A stretch of DNA of 64,000 nucleotides, from the NCBI GenBank assembly GCA_044892525.1, contig CM097885.1:18292001-18356000 (forward strand). The letters run 5' to 3'. Of this stretch, positions 1-60,279 are shown one piece after another (position 1 is the first letter of the stretch; every line of letters starts with the position of its first letter). A model generated the notes under the pieces. The model did no database searches, was not told the DNA's origin, and saw only the letters and a list, made by a program, of their open reading frames with translations. Position numbers and translations under genes: made by a program. The stretch comes from Schmidtea polychroa (taxonomy: Eukaryota).

Positions 1-316
1 AATCAACCATATCACAAGGTTGAAAAACTTCTTCAGGACATCTATGTTGATTTTTAAAAATATCAATTATAGCTTTTTTAGTTAATTTATTTTCAAATCC
101 ACATTTCAAAAGTTGTAATTCTGGTTGATTTATGGTTGTAGAATAAAAGATTAAATTATTATAATCTACAAACCTATCCTCAAGCAACATCCTCAAAAGA
201 AGTACATTCTTTCCACATCCAGAAGAACCAACAATTAATAATCTAAAATTATCAGGAAATACTTTATTATTAAATTTACTCTTATGTCTATTTAAAATTG
301 GTTTCCAAATATCCAT
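1..316 (-). CDS. A32/FtsK-like genome packaging ATPase, N-terminal 105 aa (runs off left edge; absent from ORF track)
   Basis: Manual translation from ATG at 316: MDIWKPILNRHKSKFNNKVFPDNFRLLIVGSSGCGKNVLLLRMLLEDRFVDYNNLIFYSTTINQPELQLL... Walker A-like GSSGCGK follows a hydrophobic strand, and the frame is open to the window edge. Confidence 0.88.
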   Translation of the reverse strand, partial: MDIWKPILNRHKSKFNNKVFPDNFRLLIVGSSGCGKNVLLLRMLLEDRFVDYNNLIFYSTTINQPELQLLKCGFENKLTKKAIIDIFKNQHRCPEEVFQPCDMVD

Positions 317-331
317 TTTGTTTATTATAAA

Positions 332-889
332 ATGACAACTGAAGAATCTTTAGAGCAATCCTTGCAAGAATTAATAAATTCAAATAAAAATAAATCGGTT
401 GTAATCAGCGGTAAGAAATATTTTATTGGAAAACATGTAAAAGAACAAGTTAAAGAACATATGAAGACTGGTGGAAAGGGTCACGAGGGGGGTTTTCTTC
501 CTTTAGCTGCTTTAATTCCAGCAATAATAGCTGGAATAACTGGTGCTACAGGAATAGCTACAGGAATAGCAAAAACTGTAAGCAATTCAAGAGATGCTAG
601 AAATAAAGAATTAGAAAAAGAAAAACTAGAAGCTGAAATCGAGAAAATAAAAGGTCAAAAGGGTCAAGGTCTCTATCTTAATCCTTATCAGGGGAGGGGT
701 CTCTATCTTGATCCTTATAAAGGTAGAGGTTTAAATGATTTTTTAAAAAATCAAATTTCTACATCTGAATCTTTATCATCAAAAGATAAAGATGATTTTA
801 AAAAAATATGTAAAGCTTTAAAGAATGGGTGTATTTGTAAAAATGCGCAGGGCCAGGGATTGTATTTAAGATCTTGGAAGGAACAATGA
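332..889 (+). CDS. Virion core protein similar to adenovirus pX (mu precursor)
   Basis: GGFLPLAALIPAIIAGITGATGIA resembles the pX C-terminal GGILPLLIPLIAAAIGA motif. Repeated GxGLYL motifs follow. Confidence 0.7.
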   Translation: MTTEESLEQSLQELINSNKNKSVVISGKKYFIGKHVKEQVKEHMKTGGKGHEGGFLPLAALIPAIIAGITGATGIATGIAKTVSNSRDARNKELEKEKLEAEIEKIKGQKGQGLYLNPYQGRGLYLDPYKGRGLNDFLKNQISTSESLSSKDKDDFKKICKALKNGCICKNAQGQGLYLRSWKEQ

Positions 890-922
890 TTCCCCAGCCC
901 CCTCCATTTTAATACCATTAAA

Positions 923-1795
923 ATGGTATATGAAGAAAGATTGTCTCTTTTAAAAAAATTACAATCAGAACAAGATAAATATAATAAAAAAGATATAACT
1001 CAACATGCTGAATCAATAATATTAAATGAGGTAATCCAACAACAACAGGAGCCAACAATTAAAGCTATAGAGGGACTTATCCCTCCTGAACATAAAGCTA
1101 TAGAAGCTCCTAAAAAGGAATTATTAAGATTAGTAGGAAAAAAACGTAGAAATAATATTGATTTAGAAGAAGATGAATTTCTTTCAAGATTAACACCTCA
1201 TAAGACTCCAATTAATTTTAAAATTAATACATCACTAGCTCCATCAATTATACCTATTATAGGTTATGATCTTAGAGGTTTTCAAACAATAACAATTAAT
1301 AATCAAAAATTTTATATATATTTAAATTCAGAAAATAATCCTGCGATTATTTCAATAAATACTTTTATGAATAGAGAGCGTGTTGACATTGAACTTTCAG
1401 ATGATTTTCATGGATTAATTTCTGGATATATTCCAGATGGTGTCAAGAATGAAGAAATTGATAAATATTTAAACTTAATAAAATTAATAAATGGTAGCCC
1501 TAAAGCAAAATATATTCAAGATTTAAAGAAATATAAAGATAGAGATAAAACAACCCCTCAAATTCAAATCATTGAAGATGATTCCTCAGATGTTGAACTA
1601 TCAGAGGGAGAAGGGTATAAGGAAGGAGAGGGATTTAGTAATAACCCTATAAATCTTTTTATTGAATTAAGAAAACTATTAGCTGCAAGGAAAGCAGGAC
1701 ATAATAATTTAGATTCTGATATTTTAAAGATTTCTAAAAAATTGTTAAAACAAGGAATAATTTCAAAAGATAAATTTAATAAGTATATAAAATGA
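923..1795 (+). CDS. Conserved Polinton structural/core protein
   Basis: C-terminal GEG-F..NPINLFIELRKLLAARKAGHNN...ISKKLLKQGII helical motif, which I recognise from Polinton ORFs; lies between pX and protease. Confidence 0.6.
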   Translation: MVYEERLSLLKKLQSEQDKYNKKDITQHAESIILNEVIQQQQEPTIKAIEGLIPPEHKAIEAPKKELLRLVGKKRRNNIDLEEDEFLSRLTPHKTPINFKINTSLAPSIIPIIGYDLRGFQTITINNQKFYIYLNSENNPAIISINTFMNRERVDIELSDDFHGLISGYIPDGVKNEEIDKYLNLIKLINGSPKAKYIQDLKKYKDRDKTTPQIQIIEDDSSDVELSEGEGYKEGEGFSNNPINLFIELRKLLAARKAGHNNLDSDILKISKKLLKQGIISKDKFNKYIK

Positions 1796-2267
1796 CTCCT
1801 TCAATATTAGATTTTTTAAAAACATTTGGAATAAATACAAAAACAAATTTTGATTTAAAAGATTATGCTAGAGATTTAAATTTAAAAATTAAAATATTAA
1901 TGAATGATGAATTATCAAGTCTGGAGAAAGAAACTCCAATGAATATAATAATCAATTATCAAAATTCAAATGAGAAAGGATCTCATTGGGTTTGTATATA
2001 TAAGGGGGGGGGGTAGGTGATTTAACTAGGGAGGGCACAAGGAAGAAATCTATATACTTTGATTCTTTTGGGATTAAACCTACTAAAGATGTTGAAGACT
2101 ATCTGTCGAAGGACTATACTTTTAATTCTTTACAAGTTCAACCTTGGAATACTAAAATATGTGGTATTTTAAGTTTATATGTTTTGTATAGATTGAATAA
2201 GGGAGAGGGAAAGGATTTTGAATCTATAATCAAAGAAATTTATAATGATTTAAAATCTCTATTATAA
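1792..2267 (+). pseudogene. Adenain-like cysteine maturation protease, frameshifted at G10 run (2004-2013)
   Basis: The first frame gives NYQNSNEKGSHWVCIY. The -1 frame continues IYFDSFGIKP...LQVQPWNTKICGILSLYVL to TAA at 2265-2267. Catalytic H, D, Q and C are all present. Confidence 0.9.
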
Positions 2268-2316
2268 TATTTTACTACTAAGTAATTTAATCCTATATGA
2301 ATTTACTACTAAAGAA

Positions 2317-3135
2317 ATGGAAGACAATTTAAAAAAAATGGCAAACATAATGTCAGATAAATATTCAAGAAGTTTATTAATAAATTCAAAAGAATCAAAC
2401 TTTACTATAAATTTTGAAGATTCAATAAATTTAGATCAAGATTTAAATTATGAATTAGGACTCTTGTGGTTTTCTTGTTTTAATACTATTTTTAATATAA
2501 ATAATAATAATAATAAATTTATTATAGTTAGGAGGGATAAGATATCCCAAGCCCATTCTTCAGTTATTCCCTATAGTATGTTGGAAAATAGTGAATATAA
2601 AAAGATTAAAAAATTTAATGAATACATCATTATAAAAATCGAACCAGGATCATATGAAATAGCAGATTTAGGAAAAGCAATTTTAAAAGAAACAAATGGA
2701 GAAGTAGAAATAAAAGCAGATATTCAAACCTCAAAATGTATTGCAACTTTAAAAAATGTTGGACTTGGTGTTACTAAATCCAGTTTCTTTCATACTATTT
2801 TAGGTTTTAAAGTCAGAGAATATAACACCAACACCTCACCTATTAAATCTAAAAATATTATACAATTAACAAATACAAATTGTATAAATATAGAGTGTGA
2901 TTGTATAATGGGATCATATAATAATGGTAAACATGCAAATATTTTATATTCCTTTCCTTCTAATACTGTGGGAGTTGGATTTAAAATAGTTGAAAGAATG
3001 AATCCCCCAAATTATTTACCTTTATGCAGAAAAAATATAATGGATATTAGTTTTAGAATTGTTGATGAAAACGAGAATTTAATTAGTTTTAATGGAGAAA
3101 AGATTTCAATGTGTTTACATTTGAAACAAGTTTAA
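2317..3135 (+). CDS. Minor capsid protein (penton, single jelly-roll)
   Basis: Intact 272-aa ORF with Polinton mCP-type motifs IEPGSYEI, INIECDCIMGSYNNG...ILYSF, PNYLPL, ISFRIVDENENLISFNGE...LHLK. Confidence 0.85.
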   Translation: MEDNLKKMANIMSDKYSRSLLINSKESNFTINFEDSINLDQDLNYELGLLWFSCFNTIFNINNNNNKFIIVRRDKISQAHSSVIPYSMLENSEYKKIKKFNEYIIIKIEPGSYEIADLGKAILKETNGEVEIKADIQTSKCIATLKNVGLGVTKSSFFHTILGFKVREYNTNTSPIKSKNIIQLTNTNCINIECDCIMGSYNNGKHANILYSFPSNTVGVGFKIVERMNPPNYLPLCRKNIMDISFRIVDENENLISFNGEKISMCLHLKQV

Positions 3136-3144
3136 TCTATAAAA

Positions 3145-3947
3145 ATGAATTATGCTAATTTTAATAAGTTTGGAATATATAATGTTGGATTAAAAGATGA
3201 AGATGTTATATCTCTTACTGAAAAGAGATATATTAATGAAAGAGGTGATTCAATGAAGGGTGATTTAAGTATGAATGGACACAAGATAAAAGAATTATCT
3301 CTTCCAACTGATAATCTTGATGCTACTAATAAAGAGTTCGTTGAAAAATATGTAGATAAAAAAATAATTGAAATTGAAAAAAAACATAATGAAGAAAGAC
3401 TTAAAGATAAACAAATTATGGATACTAAATTTAATACAATATATAATATAATAAATGAGTTGATTACATCATTTAATAAAAGAATTTCAAATTTAGAATC
3501 TCATGGAACACACATTAACACCACACACACTATTAGAAAAAGAGCTGCTGAATTAGAACAGAATAAAACATTATTAGCCGATACATATAAACATTTTATA
3601 GAACCAAGTTTAATAACAACAAACAGTAAAGAATGGAAAAAGAATAGTAAAGAATAGTAAAGAATAGTAAGCTTGAAAAGGGTGATGTTATAATGACTAG
3701 TTATGATTTACCACACGGAGATTGGTATGTTAATACTCATTCACATGGACTACATAAAGTTAAAAGTAAGAATATTATTTTTAAAAGCACACTTGTACAA
3801 TATATAGATTTAATATTTTATGAAAAAAAGGTTGATGTTGATGAAGTTCGTAAAGCATTGATGGAATTGTATAAAGATATTCTCTCAACAAGAGTTTCTT
3901 TTGATATCCGAGTATTGGTACCAGATAAAGTCTTGTTGAGGATATAG
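3145..3947 (+). pseudogene. Fibre/spike-like protein split by a 10-bp tandem triplication (ORF track 3145-3657 and 3693-3947)
   Basis: GDSMKGDLSMNGHKIKELSLPTDNLDATNKEFV resembles the trimeric tail-fibre/adhesin neck motif and is followed by a coiled coil. Removing two AGAATAGTAA units fuses the two ORFs in frame. Confidence 0.65.
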
Positions 3948-3992
3948 TTAAATTCTTAGTTTAATTATTTTTTTAAATTAATTATTATTAAA

Positions 3993-4594
3993 ATGGAAAG
4001 TGTGATGTCTGAAGTAAGAGAAAAAATTTACCCAGAATTATCAGGAGATGGATTCAAAGGTTCCAAGGCCTCAGCTCCTTCAGAACTTGAAGTTATGAGG
4101 GTAAAAGAATTTAAATCTGAAACCTTACATTTAAAAGATTTATTAAAGCATTATAAAAAAATTAAAAATCGATGGAATAAAGGAGATACAACTTTAAAAA
4201 TTATAGGTTTATCTTTAGGATTTACATCTGCAATCCTAACAATAATTCTTCCTTTAACACTTCCAGCCTTAAGTCTTGTTCCTGTTGTACTTGGAAGTAT
4301 TTCTGTTGCTGATGGATTCTTAACCGAGATAGTTTCAATCTCTTATACTTCAAAAAAGAAAAGTTTATATCGAGAAGTATGTCAATCCATAGAATTAGGA
4401 ATTTCAAAATTATATTTATTCCAATTGAAAGCTTTAGAAGAGGAATCCTGACAGATGAAGAAATAATGAAATCAAATCAAATAATTCAAGATATAAAGAA
4501 TGAGGTTATAAGATTAAAGACTGAGGGGAAAGGAAGTAAGAAATATATAACAAAGAAAGTTCAAAGAGAAAAATGGTTAAAAGACTATTATTAA
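3993..4594 (+). pseudogene. Membrane protein with hydrophobic hairpin (Polinton membrane-active type), 1-bp frameshift near 4441
   Basis: Hydrophobic segment IIGLSLGFTSAILTIILPLTLPALSLVPVVLGSISV. Adding one base gives KALE(D)GILTDEEIMK, joining the 4379-4594 frame. Confidence 0.6.
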
Positions 4595-4607
4595 ATCACC
4601 ATATAAA

Positions 4608-5246
4608 ATGGATGCCTTTTTGAAAAAAGTAGATCAGGTTGCAGTTGTTGATACTTCAAAATTAAACATGTTTTTATTAAAAGAAAAAGCTTTAGAGTTT
4701 ACAAAGATTTTAAGTGAGAATCCTAATTTTACTCAAGGAAAAATTTGTAAAATGTTAGGTACTTCAGATTCTACTATGAGAAGAATAAGAAATGATTTAG
4801 GAATGCCTTCACCTTTTAGACATGCTGTTAAAATAAAGAAAAAATCTAGAAAGGGAGAGAATACTACTAAGAATTTAATTACTAAGGATTTAATTACTAA
4901 GGATGAAGGGGGAGGGAAAGGGGCTGACGCAAGCAAATCTTTTTATTGTACAGATTGTTCAAAAGTTTTTAAATCTAGTAAATCTTCACAAAATCATGTT
5001 TGCACAGGGAAACCAAAAGACAGTTTAGCAGCTGGAGGGGCTTTTAGTATCTTTAATAAGAATTCTGGAAAGTCAACTAATGATAAGTTCAATTCTGGGA
5101 GCTTCGCGACCTCTGGGAAGTCAACTAATGAGGAAGAATCTGATTCTGATTCTGGGAGCTTCGCGACCTCTGGGAAGACAACTAAGTTCAATTCTGAGGA
5201 AAGAAGTAAAAAACAATTAAATGAAATTCTAGGAGTCAAATTTTGA
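4608..5246 (+). CDS. HTH plus zinc-finger protein, putative viral regulator
   Basis: HTH-like FTQGKICKMLGTSDSTMRRIRNDLG; zinc finger FYCTDCSKVFKSSKSSQNHVC; low-complexity repeats. Confidence 0.6.
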   Translation: MDAFLKKVDQVAVVDTSKLNMFLLKEKALEFTKILSENPNFTQGKICKMLGTSDSTMRRIRNDLGMPSPFRHAVKIKKKSRKGENTTKNLITKDLITKDEGGGKGADASKSFYCTDCSKVFKSSKSSQNHVCTGKPKDSLAAGGAFSIFNKNSGKSTNDKFNSGSFATSGKSTNEEESDSDSGSFATSGKTTKFNSEERSKKQLNEILGVKF

Positions 5247-5254
5247 ATTATAAA

Positions 5255-5554
5255 ATGGATTACAACTCAGTCGTTAAATTAATTAATGAAGAACCTGAAA
5301 TGAAAAATGAATGTGTAAAACTTTTGACAGAATTTAATAAACAAAGTATGGGAACCCAAATTGATTATGCTCGACAAACACTTGTTTATCGTGTAGGACA
5401 AGAAGAAATAATGAAGAGATTAATGAATAGAACTGTTGATCTTCATATTGAAAATGAGGGATTAAAGAAAGAGAAAGAATATTTATTTGAAAGTGCTAAT
5501 TTAGTTGATAAAAGTTATATAGAATCTATGCATGAAAAACATAATTTTAAATGA
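5255..5554 (+). CDS. Hypothetical viral coiled-coil protein
   Basis: ATG in TATAAAATG context like the neighbouring genes; 99 aa. Confidence 0.5.
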   Translation: MDYNSVVKLINEEPEMKNECVKLLTEFNKQSMGTQIDYARQTLVYRVGQEEIMKRLMNRTVDLHIENEGLKKEKEYLFESANLVDKSYIESMHEKHNFK

Positions 5555-5556
5555 TT

Positions 5557-5790
5557 CTAATTCTGAGCGGAATAAGGTAATAATGAAGGAAATTGAGGAA
5601 TTATTACATAGACCAATACCAAGGATATTATGATTAATATAAAAAGTGAAATAATAAAAAGTATTATATTTTTAAGTCTAGAAAGTTTTAAGTAATAATC
5701 TTTAATTATTTCATGGATAACACCATGTAATTGTTTACCTTTTTCTACAAGTTCTTCAGCTTTTGAACATCTTAAATTAATCACCGACAT
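5557..5790 (-). CDS. Small single-pass membrane protein
   Basis: TATAAAATG start; transmembrane stretch IILFIISLFILIIISLVLVYVII. Confidence 0.5.
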   Translation of the reverse strand: MSVINLRCSKAEELVEKGKQLHGVIHEIIKDYYLKLSRLKNIILFIISLFILIIISLVLVYVIIPQFPSLLPYSAQN

Positions 5791-5990
5791 TTTATAAGAA
5801 TTTAATTCTTGCTTGTTCTAAATTCAGTCATGATTGAAAGTCACTTCTTATAGTATTAAATCCTTAGTAATTAAATCCTTAGAAAATGAATGCAAGCAGT
5901 TTCAAAGAAGAGATTGGTGATATAGACCTAGGAGATGCATCTCCAGTGGACATTCCTTCAGACCTTCCAATATAATTATTTTTAAAATAA

Positions 5991-6436
5991 ATGACTACTC
6001 ATTTTGACAATCCAGAACTTTTACTTTTGCGTGGTATTGATACTCCTCTTTCTAATCTTGCAACATATTTAAAACACACACAAGAAACTTATGAGAAGAA
6101 AACAATAGAAGAAAAAGAAAAATATGGTAAAGATTCAATAGTTGATTATTATAAACTATTGTATTCTGCTTGGTGTTATCGATCACTTCTAACACCTGAA
6201 AAAATATTAGAGGCAGAGGCAAGTGCAGAAGAGGGTAAAAAGTATTTAGATGAGTGGGGAAAAATAGATTTAGATGCTGCTATCACACGCCTCAGGGGGA
6301 GGGCTTCTTTGACGACACTTCGGATGGTCTCTCGAATGACTCTGGTTATAATTCTCTCTCGGAAGACCTCTCAGGAGAATATTCTAATTCTGATAGACTT
6401 TTAGATGGCCTTTCGGATCTTTCAGAAGAGGAGTAA
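5991..6436 (+). CDS. Hypothetical viral protein, probably frameshifted near 6295-6300 into an acidic tail
   Basis: TAAATG start. The overlapping frame 6254-6436 gives an acidic, more protein-like end (GEGFFDDTSDGLSND...EEE). Confidence 0.4.
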
Positions 6437-9400
6437 TCCTACTTAACTGACTTTTATTATAATTAAATTCTTCAGGAGTTAAATTTTTGATATATTCTTC
6501 TTCAATATTGAAACATTTTTCCATGATAGAGATTGTGTTTTTAATTTGACAATATAGAGGTTTATTATCAAGATAATCAAATTGTGGAGCCTCTTCGGGA
6601 TAGGCGATCTCAACTCTATAAATATCAAGATCGGTAATTTTTAAATTATAAAGTTTATTTATTTTATCAAGATTTTTTATTATAGGGATTAAATCATTTC
6701 CAATTGGGAGAGTTGTTTTCATATCACTTAGAATAAATCTTTTATCATCATAATTTGATAATGATATCTTTGATGATTGTTGTAAATACATATTATGCTT
6801 CTCTGATCTAAGTTGATGAACCTCTTCCATTTTATCTTGATGACCTTTTAGACAATTTTTATAATCTTGATGAGTGATATTCTTAGATACTGCTCTTTGT
6901 ATCCCTTTACATTTGTTTTCCTTAGTAATTAAATTCTTAGTGATCTTACTATTTGTTATTATTGGTTGATCAAATGTATAATCTATTTCTTTAGTTTCTT
7001 TAGTTATTGGATCCTTATACTTAATTTTAATTGTTTTCTTTTCTGTTTTTGGTTTTTCCATCTCTTCAAGAGAATATTGTTTAGGTCTAATAAATACTGC
7101 ATCTGATATTATCTTATTTGGTTTTTCATCTTTGAAGGCATATAAATCTCCAGATGGGTTTATTAGTTTTGAAAGTATGGGATCTTCAGAGATTTCTTTT
7201 TTCACATCTTCTCCATCTACTTTTAAAAAGAAACTATCTGTATCCATTGCACAGAGATGAGCTCGATCTTTAAAATGAGGAGAAATAATATCATAATAAG
7301 CTTTATACATTTGTAATTTAGAAAGCTCTAAGATTGTAAAACCCATAGAGATTGGTTTATTATAAGTTTTTTCATTATTTTTTATTTCAATTGCAATTAG
7401 GTTCTTTGAAAATACTTCACCATTTTTAAATGTGGGTTTTCCAAGCATTCGATTATATCTTGCAAAGTCTTTTTGAGTATTTGTTAGAAGCTCTATTCTT
7501 GTGTACTTATCCACATTTTCCATAGTCTTGCCAAAGACTGCATTATTTAAAAGTTTATAAATCACATCAAGATAATTATTTCCAAGTTTTTTTGCTTCTT
7601 TTCTTTTCATGATATTTTCCTCAATAAAGTCTTTCATAAATGGTGATTGTTTGAATTTTATAATATTATGAATCTTCTTCAAACGAAGACCATATGAAAG
7701 ATAAAATTGAAGTAAGAGATAATGACAAAGATAATATTCTCTATTGGTTTGATCACATAAAAGTTTTATATATGCTGTTATAAGTTTTAAGATTTGCCAA
7801 TCTGAAAGTTCACTGAGATCTATCATTCTTTTTTCAGGAGCAAGTGGAAGAAACCTGGTTGAAGATTTTATTCTATCTGGATACTCGAGATCACATTCTA
7901 TAGCATAACCATAATCTGAATCTCTGGGGGTTAATAGTATTTTTTTATAAGAGCATTTAGTTTATTAACATCATTCGGGATTTCAACCCAGGAATAGTCG
8001 CCGATTGGTAAATAATGTTCCATTACACCTCCATATAGAGCGTTTGCATCAACATAAAGTATTTCAGATGGATTGGTTAAGCCCTCCATTATTAATTTAG
8101 AGTCTTCTGGAGTTTCTATTTTAATATAGTTCTTACCAGAATCAGTATCTTTGAAATATTTTCTAATAACAGTTATTGAATTATTTGTACTTATTTCTCT
8201 ATCCCCCATTACAGAAGAAATACCCCCTCTAATATTTTGTTTAAATAGATTAAACATGTCAGCATCTTTTATTAATTCTATTTTTTTATTCTTATCAGAA
8301 TCCCCAGAAGTCCATTTATTATATAACATTATATCCCAAGCTAGAGCTGGCAGTGTTATATAATTATATGGTTTTAATTCAAAGGTATTACAAAAGATTT
8401 CAAAACAATCGGTTAGGATATAAACATCCAGGGATAAATACATGTCGGCATAATCTCCTAAAGTTTTACATCCAAATAAATCCCACATTTTATTTGCTCT
8501 AGCATATTCTTGATCTGTAATATTTATCTTTCATTATATCTTTCAAATGAATTCATGTAATCATATGGATATACTCCTTTTGCTAGGCATGTAGAATATT
8601 CTTCTAAAGGGATATTATTTTTTTCCAAAACCATCTCTATTGTATATTTAAAATCCTCAGGATTCATGTTTTTAGCTATTGAATCCAGAGGCATTTGTAG
8701 GAAGTTTAGAGAATCTAAAAATTTTAAACATCCATATTGTACACATTTATATTTTTCCTTTGTAAGTCCAATAACCTTGAAAGAGTTTTTAGCATTTACA
8801 GCTAAAGCTTTTATAAATAAATGTAAATCATATCCAAAAAGATTATGAAATGTAACAGGTATAAATTTAGGAGTGTGACAATTAAGGTTGCAATTATTAT
8901 GAGCAGCTCCTCTATAATTATTTTCCTTTTTAAAATGATCATGATCAGGAACTTTAGGAGTCTTGGATACAAGAGGATCGTCAAATTTCTGTTTGCACAT
9001 CCAACAATGTGTAGTATTTTTATATTCTTCAAATTGTTCATCTGAGAAATTTAATTTATGGTCTGTTTTTAATACCATAAATAATTTATGTTCTAGGTGA
9101 TTTGTATCATCAACAAAATGGTTTAGGGTGTCTTCTTGAGAGATTCCTCTATATGAATATTCTTTAGATTCTATGAGTTCAGGATAATTACTTTTAAAAA
9201 ATAGTTTATAAGCTGTTGGTATTTGTTTAGCAGTTCTTATTGTATAAGATTTTTTATTTTCCCATAGAAAGTTTTTCATAATCAACCATTTGGGAATCTG
9301 CGTAGTCATTCCTTTTAAATACTCTTCAAAAGGATCTACTAAATTATGTTTTTCTATTATTTTAAAATATTCTTTTTCTAAATCATATTCTACATTTATT

Positions 9401-11001
9401 GCTTCAAAATCTCCTATTATTTCCCCCAATGATTTTAATAAATTTGAATGATTTTTAAAATGCATGTCTATCTTTGTAGGCATTTTAATTAAAGAAGGTT
9501 TATTCTTCTCACATAATCTTTCATGTTTAATTGTAGCATTTTTTGTTGTGGAATAATGTAAACATCTTTTACAAGTTGTTCCACCTCTAGCTAAATTTCT
9601 TGAACGCATAAGACTTTGAAAGTTTTTTATTAAAATATAATGTTGATTCCTTTCTAATTCTGGTAGGTCCTTCTCTTCTATGCCCTGGCCCTCTCCCTCT
9701 TCTTCTTCTGAGTTCCCAGAGGTCGCGAAGCTCCCAGAAATGAAGTTCCCAAATTCTTCCTCCGATTCCTCCTCTGCTTGAAGATTTAATTCTTGACATG
9801 ATTCATCATCATCAGAATTATATGGATAACCATTATTAACATCTCTATAATCAACTTTATTAAATTGCTCTATTATTAAAAGATATATTTCTCTATTTTT
9901 ATCTTCTACAGATAATTCTCTATTTGAAATATAAATTGGAATAATATGTTTTCTAAAATCTTCCTTAGATGGAGCATATTCATAAATATTAAGTTTAAGA
10001 TTATTTAATTCTTCAAATTTTGGAATATATTCAATTTTCATCGGGTGTTCAAATCCTTCTGGATATATTAATTCATTTTCATATTGTTCATATTTTTTAA
10101 CTCTTTGAGCATTCCTTGCTTGTGGATGTAAGTGAGCAAGTATTACCCATTGAAAACATTTATTATCAGCATTCTTTATATTTATAACATAACTCGAGTC
10201 GAATGGTGTTATGATATAAGATTTTGGATTTGGAGGTGCTGCTCTCCAATATTCAATTTCTATAGATTGGAAAGAATGAAATCTTAAATTTGATTCTCCC
10301 AATTCTTGTTCTATTTGTTCTTGTTGTTCTCCCATCTCTTTGCATAAATCATTGATGGTTTTATTTATTCCTTATGTTGAGAATAAATATTTAAAAATTG
10401 ATTCAACAATGGAATCTAAAGGGGATGTGTTCGCTCCTTCTCCTCTCCAATATTTTGTGGCGATTCTAACTTTATATTTTATAATGTTGAATCTTGATTG
10501 AGTAAAAATTCTTATAGCATTGTCCATTGAACTTTTTATGTTCTGTTTATTTGCTCTTATATATTCTGAGATTGTGGAGGAAAACATTTGTTCTCCAAAT
10601 ACATCTATATGATTGAAGTTATCCCAATTATATTTTTCCTTTTCAATATGTTCGGGCTCAACATCAGAATCCTCAGAATCAGAATCTCTTTTAGGTATTG
10701 GTTGTTTGTTTTTTATAGCACATGATTTTACATGTTTTAAATAATAAGATTTTATATTAAATTTTAATTTACATATGAAGCATTCAAATTTTTCTCTATT
10801 TTTAGGAACTCCAATACAACTTGAAAAATGTTTATCATATCCTGAATGTAAATATCTCACTTTACATTTAGTACAGATTTTAGAGTTTGAATTATTAAGT
10901 CTATTTGTTTTTAATAAACGTGCTTTTGATTTTTGATGAGATAGTAGAGCTGTTCTGTTTTTAAAAGTTTTTTGACAAACCTCACAACTATAATCATTCA
11001 T
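6384..11001 (-). pseudogene. polB: Protein-primed family B DNA polymerase polyprotein (Zn fingers, terminal-protein region, vOTU, exonuclease with EndoVII insert, polymerase); three lesions
   Basis: ExoI GDFEA, ExoII FHNLFGYD, KGVYPYDY, motif A YVDANALYG, motif B KLLNNAVFGKTMEN, motif C MDTDS. Lesions: in-frame TAA at 10372-10374, frameshift/deletion near 8524, missing base in the T7 run at 7940-7946. Confidence 0.95.
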
Positions 11002-11131
11002 TTTTTTAAAAAAAATTTTTATTGGATACTCTGTTTTTAAATTTTTAATTTTTTATATATTTATTAATTCAGAATGCCAAACTGGCAGCTTATATTTGCC
11101 AAGACGGCGACATGCCAGCACAATAATGATA

Positions 11132-11484
11132 AGTAGTGGACATAAGACCCACACGCACGAAACCTTTCCTGGAGATGTGGGATTTCCATTTCTTCTCCTT
11201 TTTTCTTTATATTTATAGGGTTTAAGGTTGGAAAAGTAAGGGTATTTGTTTTTGAAATAAAGGTAAAAAAGGATTAAAAATGAAAGGAATTATTGTCTTT
11301 TTACTATAAAATATAGGGATTGGTGAACACTTTTCCAGAGGGAAAGTAGGGGTATATGTTTTCAAAATAAAGGTAAAAAAGGATTAAAAATGAAAGGAAT
11401 TGAGGTCTTTTTACTATAAAATATAGGGATTGGTGAACACTTTTCCAGAGGGGGTGAGGGCGTGTGGGTCTTATGTCCACTACT
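11132..11484. repeat. Terminal module: 25-bp perfect inverted repeat enclosing a 110-bp tandem duplication
   Basis: AGTAGTGGACATAAGACCCACACGC (11132-11156) and its exact reverse complement (11460-11484). Direct repeats at about 11231-11342 and 11341-11452. Confidence 0.9.
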
Positions 11485-14061
11485 AATAATAATAATAATG
11501 AATAAAATTAATTTACATCTTGAGACCACTGATAATAATGTTCCGAGTCCCATAGACTTTTTTCAATAATAATTTTCATATAAGTGAACCCTACAATAAT
11601 TCTTGTCCACTTCATTTATTCATCGCAGAGACATTGAAATATATTGTTAAAATAAATCTTCTTTGATACAATCCATATCGAGCATGTTCTGGTAGCCTTT
11701 AATAATTTTTTCGGTCCAATTGATTAGGAAACTGAGGCTTTCCATAATGTTTCTGTTGAATATCTCGTTTAACAAGTTTTTGATGAAATTTGTTTGTGTC
11801 ATTTTTTACAGTAATTTAAAATATAATGTTTTATTTATACTAATAATGTTTATGATTCTGATTGGTTGATAGACTATAAATGCAAAGCATAATAGATTTG
11901 ATTTTATACAACATGAATGTGTTATTTCTATTGGTAATTAGTATAATGAGTGTGTGCTCACACAATACAACAATAACGGTGGAGTCTTTTAATAAATTAA
12001 TATATGTCTTAGTGAGCCGTTACACGACATTAACAAAATCTATATAAATATTATATACAAAAACGAAACGTAGCCTAAATGGGAGATCAGTAACGAATAA
12101 TGATCAATTAGAACACAATTATGGCCAATCAAATATTACATATAACAGCACATTAGTTGGAACATCTCAGTCTACTCTAACTCATTCCAAGAGTCAATCA
12201 AAATTCATGCAATCATCTAATACTTCTTATTATCAATCAGGCTCTATAAATCAATCTCAGAAGAGAAAAGCAAATTCGATGCCATGTTATTATTATCAAG
12301 ATTCACTGTATTCGGCTCCTAATAGTGTTAGCTCTCATAGACCAACATCTTCATCCATTCCCCATTCACAATCACCACAATTTCATATGGGAAATACACC
12401 ATCTAATTTAGTCCAGCAAAGTAATACTGTTTCAGAGGTAATTCAGCCATGTATCGTAGAATCTTGCAGTGGAGTTCATGAACATGTAAATTCCCAAAAA
12501 TCTCTCCAAATAAGCCAAGATGTTGAAATGGTTCCGTATTTTCAAATAAAACAAATTCAAGTCTAATAACAAAAAAATATGGCTACGTCTAGCTACTATA
12601 ATGATTTATTACAGTATTAATATTGGCATCCGAATGCTAAATCTCATTAACATCAGACATTCATGATAGAATAACAATTTGATTTAATTTACTTTAAATA
12701 TTTTCTTATTTTAAAAAAAAGTGATTGCTATAAAAAGTTTGTATTTGGAAAATATTTTGTAATTACTTTTTATTTGGTAAATTACAAATAAAAAAGATTT
12801 TGCTGGTTGTTTGAATAATGCTATATTCTGGAGTTTTTAAATTAAGAAATTTTTAATTGCGGTTTTTTACTTCGCTGGTAACTTTTGGAATTTGGAACTG
12901 TATTAAAGAATTTTTAATTGAAAAATAAATATTTTCTCATTGGCATAGTTCTAATGTTTACAATCCGCAAAAATGGATAAACACCACATATGTGTTTGTC
13001 CAAATACCGCCAAGTTGATGGATATTTTATATATTATTGATAAACCAAAATGGTCAAAGCATCCAAGAAAAAGAATATCCGGAAGAATGGAAAATTTAGA
13101 AAACAGCTATGACCTATCATTTGAATATATAGAAAATATAAAACTTAAATTACTTGATCATACTAATGATTTCAATAAATCACTTGCTGAAAATAAAAAG
13201 AATATGAAAATTATTGATAAGAATATAAAAGATTGATTTAATAATATTCGAAATTAGAATAATAAAAGAATCGATAAAAAATTTTAAAACCATTTCTACG
13301 TTACCAATTTCAAACAAGATGGCAGCAAATATGAGTACGTCAATATTTAGACTAACATTGTTAATTTTAAATTATTTTATTGTTTAATATATGTTTTGAT
13401 TTGTCTTTAAATTACCTTTTGATTGATATCTTATTATTATAATTATTATTATTATTAATATTTCACGTGTAAATTTACCAAAGATGTCTTTATGTGAGTA
13501 ACAAAGATGTTACGCACTTAGTAACAATGACGGATTGATAAGTTATATTTAGATAACAAAGAATCGATTATATTTTCTATCCAATCGGTATTCTGATTGG
13601 ATAGATGTTACATATACTCGATTCTTTGTAATTCATATTTCAAAATGATCGAGAGGTAATTATAGTAGTTAAATATGTGCTTACGGCAGAAATTTAATAC
13701 CCCTTACAACTCAATAATTAATCAGAATTTAACAAATATTTTCATTAATTATTTCCTTTTATTTCATTATTTTTATTTAATTAAGTAACATAGTTTTATT
13801 TCTTTATTTTATTATTTAATTAATTTAGTTTAAATTTAAATTATTAATTCTAATATGTAATTCTTATTACTCTTTTTTACTAATTTACGCAAACTGAGAC
13901 AAAATTGTTCAAAATATAAAAATATATTAGTCAAACTTATTATACATTTAATTCAAAAAAAATCAATAAAAACAAATTTTTTAACAAATATTTATTTAAA
14001 TAACTTCCGGTATATCTTCAACTGTTTCTTTGAGTTGCGAGTATGATGGATCCGGATATAA

Positions 14062-17723: not shown

Positions 17724-54747
<37,024 letters not shown>

Positions 54748-57461: not shown

Positions 57462-57936
57462 GGTGGTACGGACAAAATGGTACAAACAAAATACGTCCGC
57501 ATCAATGAAGCACTTCACACCATGGTAGATCCGGTTACTTATTTGGGAGATATTGCGCGCGTGCTCAATATAAATGTTGTCTGACAGACACTGTATTACA
57601 TAAGTGTTTACTGTTTAAGCATAAACGAAACATTATAACTGAGTAGGTCTTTAGTCTTAAAGGTTTGACACTAGTTTTATTTATTTATTTATTCATTATA
57701 ATTTATATATTGTCTAGATTTTTCGATTTTTTTATTATTAATAAACGAAAGACGGAAAGAGTCAGACATTTATACTAAATAAAAATAATTTACTTATGCG
57801 TTAAGTCAATAATTAATTAAATGCATTTTTAAAAAAATTAAACTTTTTATTCTATTTAAACAAAGTTAATCTATACCATTTAATCCTAGTACCATTTTGC
57901 CCGTACCATTTTGCCCGTACCATTTTGTCCTAGAAC
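57462..57936. mobile_element. Mutator-like MITE
   Basis: Perfect 9-bp TSD AAGTAGTTC; GGACAAAATGGTAC / GTACCATTTTGTCC terminal repeats in tandem. Confidence 0.85.

Positions 57937-59210: not shown

Positions 59211-60279
<1,069 letters not shown>

Follow-up and report, generated by a model that had tools for sequence, protein, structure and literature searches.

Two Polinton-type ends face each other at the borders of a 353-bp module (positions 11132–11484) that lies beside the Polinton occupying the first ~11 kb of the window, by which we mean the whole 64-kb stretch of DNA analysed here. The module is real, Polinton-derived and probably the decay product of one copy, and we tentatively favour the reading that it is the one-off leftover of a nested Polinton integration followed by deletion of the interior. 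Such a nested insertion and deletion was absent from the first-pass annotation of this DNA, and accounts for the data at least as well as the readings offered there. The parts of the module are:

11132–11156, plus strand: inner (left) arm, a 25-bp Polinton-type terminus that starts AGTAGT and points away from pPolB (for the end motif compare section 7 in the available part of PMC8097293)
11157–11229, unstranded: unique segment of 73 bp, weakly resembling the other arm’s subterminal DNA and Polinton-like in composition (+7.2 bits)
11230–11452, unstranded: 110-bp tandem duplication, two copies (period 110, 2.0 copies, 93%, no indels)
11460–11484, minus strand: outer (right) arm, which ends ACTACT and is oriented as the right terminus of the neighbouring Polinton

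The 25-mer starting AGTAGT is exact at both borders, and two such matches were reached in none of 100 shuffles; in the 64-kb window there is no further copy at up to three mismatches, the next best site having nine. The perfect inverted repeats 353 bp apart and the 110-bp duplication between them are therefore as the first-pass annotation described them, the two copies of the duplication differing by 8 substitutions in 113 aligned bases. The continuation of the similarity inward of the arms, which had been called weak, is weak indeed, its score being reached by 53 of 2000 dinucleotide shuffles. As single-stranded DNA the module is predicted to fold with the arms as its stem (−48.7 kcal/mol, matched by 0 of 100 shuffles). 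About 0.05% of window positions begin with one of three Maverick end hexamers (motifs taken from the available part of PMC8097293), and since an inverted repeat starting exactly on such a motif is unlikely to arise by chance, both arms are element ends. The (AGT)2//(ACT)2 termini expected of a non-autonomous Polinton are present, this pair being the commonest end motif of vertebrate Mavericks in the same source. The window’s other 11 AGTAGT and 12 ACTACT words form no inverted pair, the best likeness extending to 15 of 24 further bases. The description of the site as a Polinton end likewise stands, the module lying where the end of the neighbouring element is expected.

That neighbouring element is covered only in part, its left end preceding the window start. 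It encodes a protein-primed family B polymerase (pPolB), as expected of a Polinton/Maverick, and is itself decayed, its pPolB being broken into four pieces, listed here together with a putative packaging ATPase:

10372–11001, minus strand: pPolB, first piece, with start codon and zinc finger; aligns to P0001, a relative of 1341 aa, over its residues 4–167 (pairwise E 1e-16)
8524–10335, minus strand: pPolB, second piece; 34% identity to P0001 residues 181–739 (pairwise E 5e-101)
7931–8488, minus strand: pPolB, third piece, assigned from position and a reading of the translation; no Pfam match
6384–7826, minus strand: pPolB, fourth piece, the polymerase domain; Pfam DNA_pol_B_2 (PF03175), E 4.5e-9, 505 homologues
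2–316, minus strand: putative A32-like packaging ATPase, truncated at the window start to a 105-aa piece; Pfam Pox_A32, E 3.3e-4, 20.7 bits against a curated cut-off of 22.8

The closest relative of pPolB is P0001, whose N-terminus is matched by the first piece and whose middle by the second; the named sequences among the 505 homologues are mostly from animals. A retroviral-like integrase and a major capsid protein were not among the 16 ORFs scanned in the window, which the left part of the element precedes. The Polinton ORF at 332–889 weakly resembles adenovirus core protein X (Pfam Adeno_PX, E 0.008), and a piece at 2052–2264 looks protease-like by eye, with no Pfam match. Measured upstream from the pPolB start codon, the module begins at 131 bp and its outer end is reached at 483 bp.

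Where the element stops was addressed with a trinucleotide model trained on positions 1–8000 (Polinton) against host DNA. The module scores +14.6 bits towards Polinton, a value reached by 0 of 119 host segments, while eight held-out Polinton segments score 5.9 to 15.9 bits. The five 353-bp segments to the right of the module are host-like (−21.5 to 0.0 bits); in finer scoring positions 11485–11700 are neutral, and the DNA is host-like beyond ~11,700. On the left, the composition switches at 11131/11132, from −9.2 bits in the 61 bp outside to +7.2 bits in the 73 bp inside the arm, and positions 11002–11131 score lower than every one of 84 leave-one-out Polinton windows and fall under the 5th percentile of 325 host windows. 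The best CpG change point falls at 11103, with an interval (10850–12016) too wide to separate 11131 from 11484. Two features adjoin the module:

11071–11131, unstranded: TGCCA/TGGCA stretch, 61 bp with four words, the sole such cluster among the window’s 63 sites; unlike Polinton interior
11518–11533, minus strand: degenerate third end-like word, 11/16, then AATAAT; may be chance

The four words of the first stretch lie within ~45 bp on the upstream side of a TATA-like word, which is itself ~58 bases ahead of the pPolB start. On these sequence features the stretch may be either the pPolB promoter or foreign DNA, and as the only four-word cluster of its kind in the window it may be promoter rather than foreign. 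Its words presumably resemble NFI half-sites, and no full NFI site is matched. For the second feature, 51 other positions of 128,000 equal the score of 11/16; extended to 11518–11539, it matches the outer arm’s last 16 bases plus AATAAT at 17 of 22 positions, the best non-self match in 128,000 positions, in the same orientation as the outer arm and 49 bp further out. It could be a degenerate older end of the resident element, or chance. An Rfam scan of 11100–14000 gave no matches.

The immediate flanks of the module bear on whether it was inserted as a unit:

11122–11131, plus strand: left flank AATAATGATA, a near-duplicate of the right flank (9/10, 6/7, 2/6)
11485–11494, plus strand: right flank AATAATAATA, which begins a short AAT run

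The 6-bp flanks, ATGATA and AATAAT, agree at 2 of 6 positions, so that the first-pass annotation rightly saw no 6-bp target-site duplication (TSD), yet it overlooked the direct matches at other lengths (3/4, 6/7 and 9/10). An exact 6/6 AATAAT pair is obtained only after a 4-base slip of the left boundary. Within the TSD range of 5–8 bp given in the available part of bioRxiv 2023.08.22.554363, the 7-bp flanks match at 6 of 7. The inverted match of the flanks is 6/9. A near-TSD at 9/10 occurs at 45 of 62,056 non-microsatellite positions, and looser rules admit 333; among the 1,087 positions with AATAAT within 12 bases, 285 pass the loose rule and 32 the 9/10 rule. The near-TSD therefore counts in favour of insertion as a unit only for an integrase indifferent to AAT sites. 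Because an exact 6-bp TSD is missing, we have not filed the module as a non-autonomous Polinton family.

Under the nested-insertion reading, a second Polinton-type element would have inserted itself near the end of the resident, in AAT-rich subterminal sequence, creating the clean AGTAGT junction at 11132, and its interior would then have been deleted, leaving 25 to ~100 bp of one end facing ~250 bp of another. Long inverted repeats tend to suffer deletion. The right arm could be the nested element’s or the resident’s. In the former case the 6/7 or 9/10 flanks would be a decayed TSD and the resident’s own end would be missing, the sole candidate for it being the word at 11518–11533; in the latter no TSD is expected. 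The clean AGTAGT start, the Polinton-like composition, the uncommon near-TSD, the broken pPolB and the host-like DNA further right all argue for nesting, as does the fact that no copy of the module was recovered elsewhere, in collections with little animal coverage. There is precedent at the C. elegans eri-6/7 locus (bioRxiv 2024.01.15.575659, available text), where repeated Polinton insertions at one place, mostly deleted, have left TIR remnants beside pPolB-end fragments; there, however, the remnants are 744-bp TIRs in direct repeat and a host gene is affected, whereas the module has two short facing ends and no known host effect. Erosion is also common in vertebrates, for which the part of PMC8097293 available lists 2,166 elements without discernible TIRs and describes most loci as eroded. 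Against nesting, two events are required, neither directly observed, the exact 6-bp TSD is missing at the boundaries, and any integrase preference for AAT sites would weaken the near-TSD as support. The identity of the arms, set against duplicates that differ at 8 of 113 bases, leans slightly towards selection on both ends; by simple arithmetic, arms diverging at the duplicates’ rate would stay identical by chance in about 16% of cases. If the nested-insertion reading holds, the module would at present be without function.

That the module is instead a working unit, either a mobile 353-bp mini-Polinton or an inherited compound end, is on the whole unlikely. The first of these has a small chance of being right. 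It supposes that copy-back or deletion gave rise to a unit closed by 25-bp panhandle ends, that pPolB copied this unit while a helper element supplied the integrase for its insertion, and that it landed in the subterminal DNA of this Polinton. The whole-element anatomy with (AGT)2//(ACT)2 termini, the near-TSD at 6/7 and 9/10, the jump in composition at 11131/11132 and the fold with the arms as stem would all suit such a unit, as would the ends of distant relatives. An alignment search gave 28 distant Polinton-like loci at 26–41% protein identity, and in the two with both ends present the TIRs are perfect outside and degenerate inward:

L115, 1–277 and 12050–12321: TIRs perfect over the outer 117 nt
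L125, 1–493 and 9332–9821: TIRs perfect over the outer 101 nt

Mobility predicts further copies, and there is no second copy of the module in the 64-kb window. Nor did the public collections supply one: an 18-mer of the arm had no match in viral contigs, an inner 21-mer gave no match either, and a 22-mer had none in prokaryote genomes. The viral, prokaryote and metagenome collections searched hardly cover animal genomes. The 100 metagenome matches to a 16-mer are chance, since 85 stop at 16 nt, the longest is 19 and none encodes a pPolB relative, and a single-protein locus search gave eight candidates, none of them confirmed. Eight sequencing runs contain 0.05–0.38 of the words sampled from 10300–12300, a figure not resolved by part. 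The docked mini-element of the first-pass annotation keeps the near-TSD and the Polinton-like composition in its favour, but no second copy has come to light in 64 kb or in these collections. Against it also stand the missing exact 6-bp TSD and arms of 25 bp, where vertebrate TIRs measure at least 46 bp in the available part of PMC8097293. Non-autonomous Polintons are apparently absent in Anolis, as far as the available part of PMC3014272 goes, and we found no description of a sub-kilobase Polinton MITE in literature of which our coverage was partial.

The second kind of working unit, a compound end, we consider improbable: throughout the family, copies would have an inverted terminus set 353 bp in from the end. 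By base-pairing with the inner arm, the 3’ end of a displaced strand could start synthesis back along the element and so produce fold-back genomes; in variants of the idea the inner arm could serve as a second origin, or let the tip invert. A panhandle intermediate has been proposed for Polinton replication (relayed in PMC4046053, available text), and from that proposal we infer the self-priming on the displaced strand. The position of the module agrees with such an end, the module’s outer border lying 483 bp from the pPolB start codon, a distance of the order of the vertebrate TIR (46–1,447 bp, mean 402 bp, in the part of PMC8097293 available), and so do the perfect arms, the lack of any other copy of the end in the window and the host-like composition of the five segments to the right. 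Against it, none of the 28 distant loci has an inverted pair led by an end motif (AGTAGT or AGAGAG) within 800 bp, a weak test at 26–41% protein identity with both ends present in only two; a pair AGTAGT...ACTACT 340 bp apart upstream of pPolB in one locus (L127) is chance, as it lies within the ATPase ORF with no repeat past the hexamer. The 16 ORFs scanned included no recognisable recombinase gene, internal origins in adenovirus work poorly without a free end, and the near-TSD would be left to target preference or chance. The double origin or invertible end of the first-pass annotation has accordingly gained no positive evidence. In literature covered in part, and without the founding Polinton papers and Repbase, we found no Polinton end described as containing its own terminus in inverted form.

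A single copy-back event in place seems doubtful. Here pPolB would start at the right end, switch after 328 nt to the nascent strand, copy its first 25 nt to the free end and then return to the template, thereby inserting an inverted terminus. The copy halts exactly at the terminus without taking in flank (inverted flank match 6/9), which fits a free linear end, and there is a weak quasi-palindrome just inside the arms; but a double switch is needed, the near-TSD goes unexplained, and in literature covered in part we found no report of such an event for Polintons.

It is very improbable that the module is a MITE of another superfamily, with a TSD of 4, 7 or 10 bp in an AAT site. The phase of the flanks does suit these lengths over 6 bp, and 353 bp with short TIRs is MITE-like, whereas the end motif is the commonest one of Mavericks in the available part of PMC8097293, the composition is Polinton-like and the module abuts pPolB. 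Elements of the hAT superfamily have an 8-bp TSD around YARNG-type ends; hAT ends placed at 11134/11482 give 8-bp flanks that match at 3 of 8 positions.

Equally remote is the reading that the element runs on to the right and that the module is an internal one, regulatory or an origin, separating pPolB from divergent genes. Among the 18 distant loci with DNA upstream of pPolB, at least three (L113, L119 and L120) have an inverted repeat and a direct duplication of 51–78 bp located 70–420 bp upstream of an internal pPolB start (in L119 at 4657–4840), possibly a shared promoter or origin arrangement, and plus-strand ORFs lie to the right of our module at 12048–12566 and 12973–13236. None of the three distant modules begins with an end motif, however, and here the DNA to the right is host-like, no homologue of its ORFs was found and the next ACTACT occurs only at 32292. 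The region 11880–12566 comprises Ser/Gln-rich frames of 55 and 172 aa with one stop between them; a search of 1.84 billion representatives gave no homologue of the 172-aa part.

An assembly artefact or collapsed head-to-tail junction has as little to recommend it: the region is rich in repeats and the four-piece pPolB could stem from sequence errors, but only substitutions separate the duplicates, a fold-back chimera would not be expected to have a 25-bp stem and a 303-bp unique loop, and the collapsed junction considered in the first-pass annotation is excluded by the order of the arms, since it would read ACTACT then AGTAGT with the repeat outward and we observe AGTAGT then ACTACT with the repeat inward.

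Compared with Maverick/Polinton termini in the available part of PMC8097293, the module has the same 6-bp end motif, neighbours a pPolB and a putative A32-like ATPase, and has a distance from pPolB start to outer end that lies within the TIR range; it differs in that its termini face each other 353 bp apart, with 25 bp perfect, no gene between them and the exact 6-bp TSD missing. With MITEs and other internally deleted non-autonomous DNA transposons it shares a short, non-coding body, short TIRs and near-duplicated flanks, although it is single-copy in 64 kb and its ends are of Polinton type. In the way it works, the module would be comparable to a transposon that kept its Polinton ends and lost its interior. 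A panhandle geometry like that of the module, a contiguous end with a short inverted copy of the terminus, is found in copy-back defective genomes and in adenovirus mutants with embedded ITRs; unlike these, the module is integrated in a host chromosome and known from its sequence alone. A Maverick expansion has been described in Dugesia (bioRxiv 10.64898/2025.12.11.693146, available text), which bears on this DNA only if the host is a flatworm, and related literature, likewise as available in part, includes PMC6431247, bioRxiv 2025.02.07.637071, PMC8504770, PMC5499653 and PMC10175614.

Were the 353-bp unit to recur, it would mark the minimal cis sequence for polymerase and integrase, a terminus of 25 bp, the full length being dispensable, and a true mini-Polinton would be the smallest replicon movable by pPolB and integrase. 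From a conserved inner terminus, snap-back derivatives could arise by a concrete route. A single-copy module would be a case of ordinary transposon decay, from which there is little to learn; the module matters only if copies elsewhere show it to move or recur.

Elsewhere in the window, an uninterrupted, animal-type GAPDH ORF on the minus strand (59329–60273) ends at 314 aa, ~20 residues short of solved relatives, and is either a pseudogene or continued in a further exon. A short element at 38113–38608 lies between (TA)n stretches of ~150 bp, its inverted match reaching a few bases into the core, and is a candidate microsatellite-targeting MITE. At 57470–57930 a 14-bp perfect inverted repeat with its arms 460 bp apart, and a 14-bp tandem repeat within the right arm, marks another possible MITE. 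Tandem arrays are found at 18643–19587 (147-bp unit, 6.4 copies) and at 52513–53291 (21-bp unit, 37 copies).
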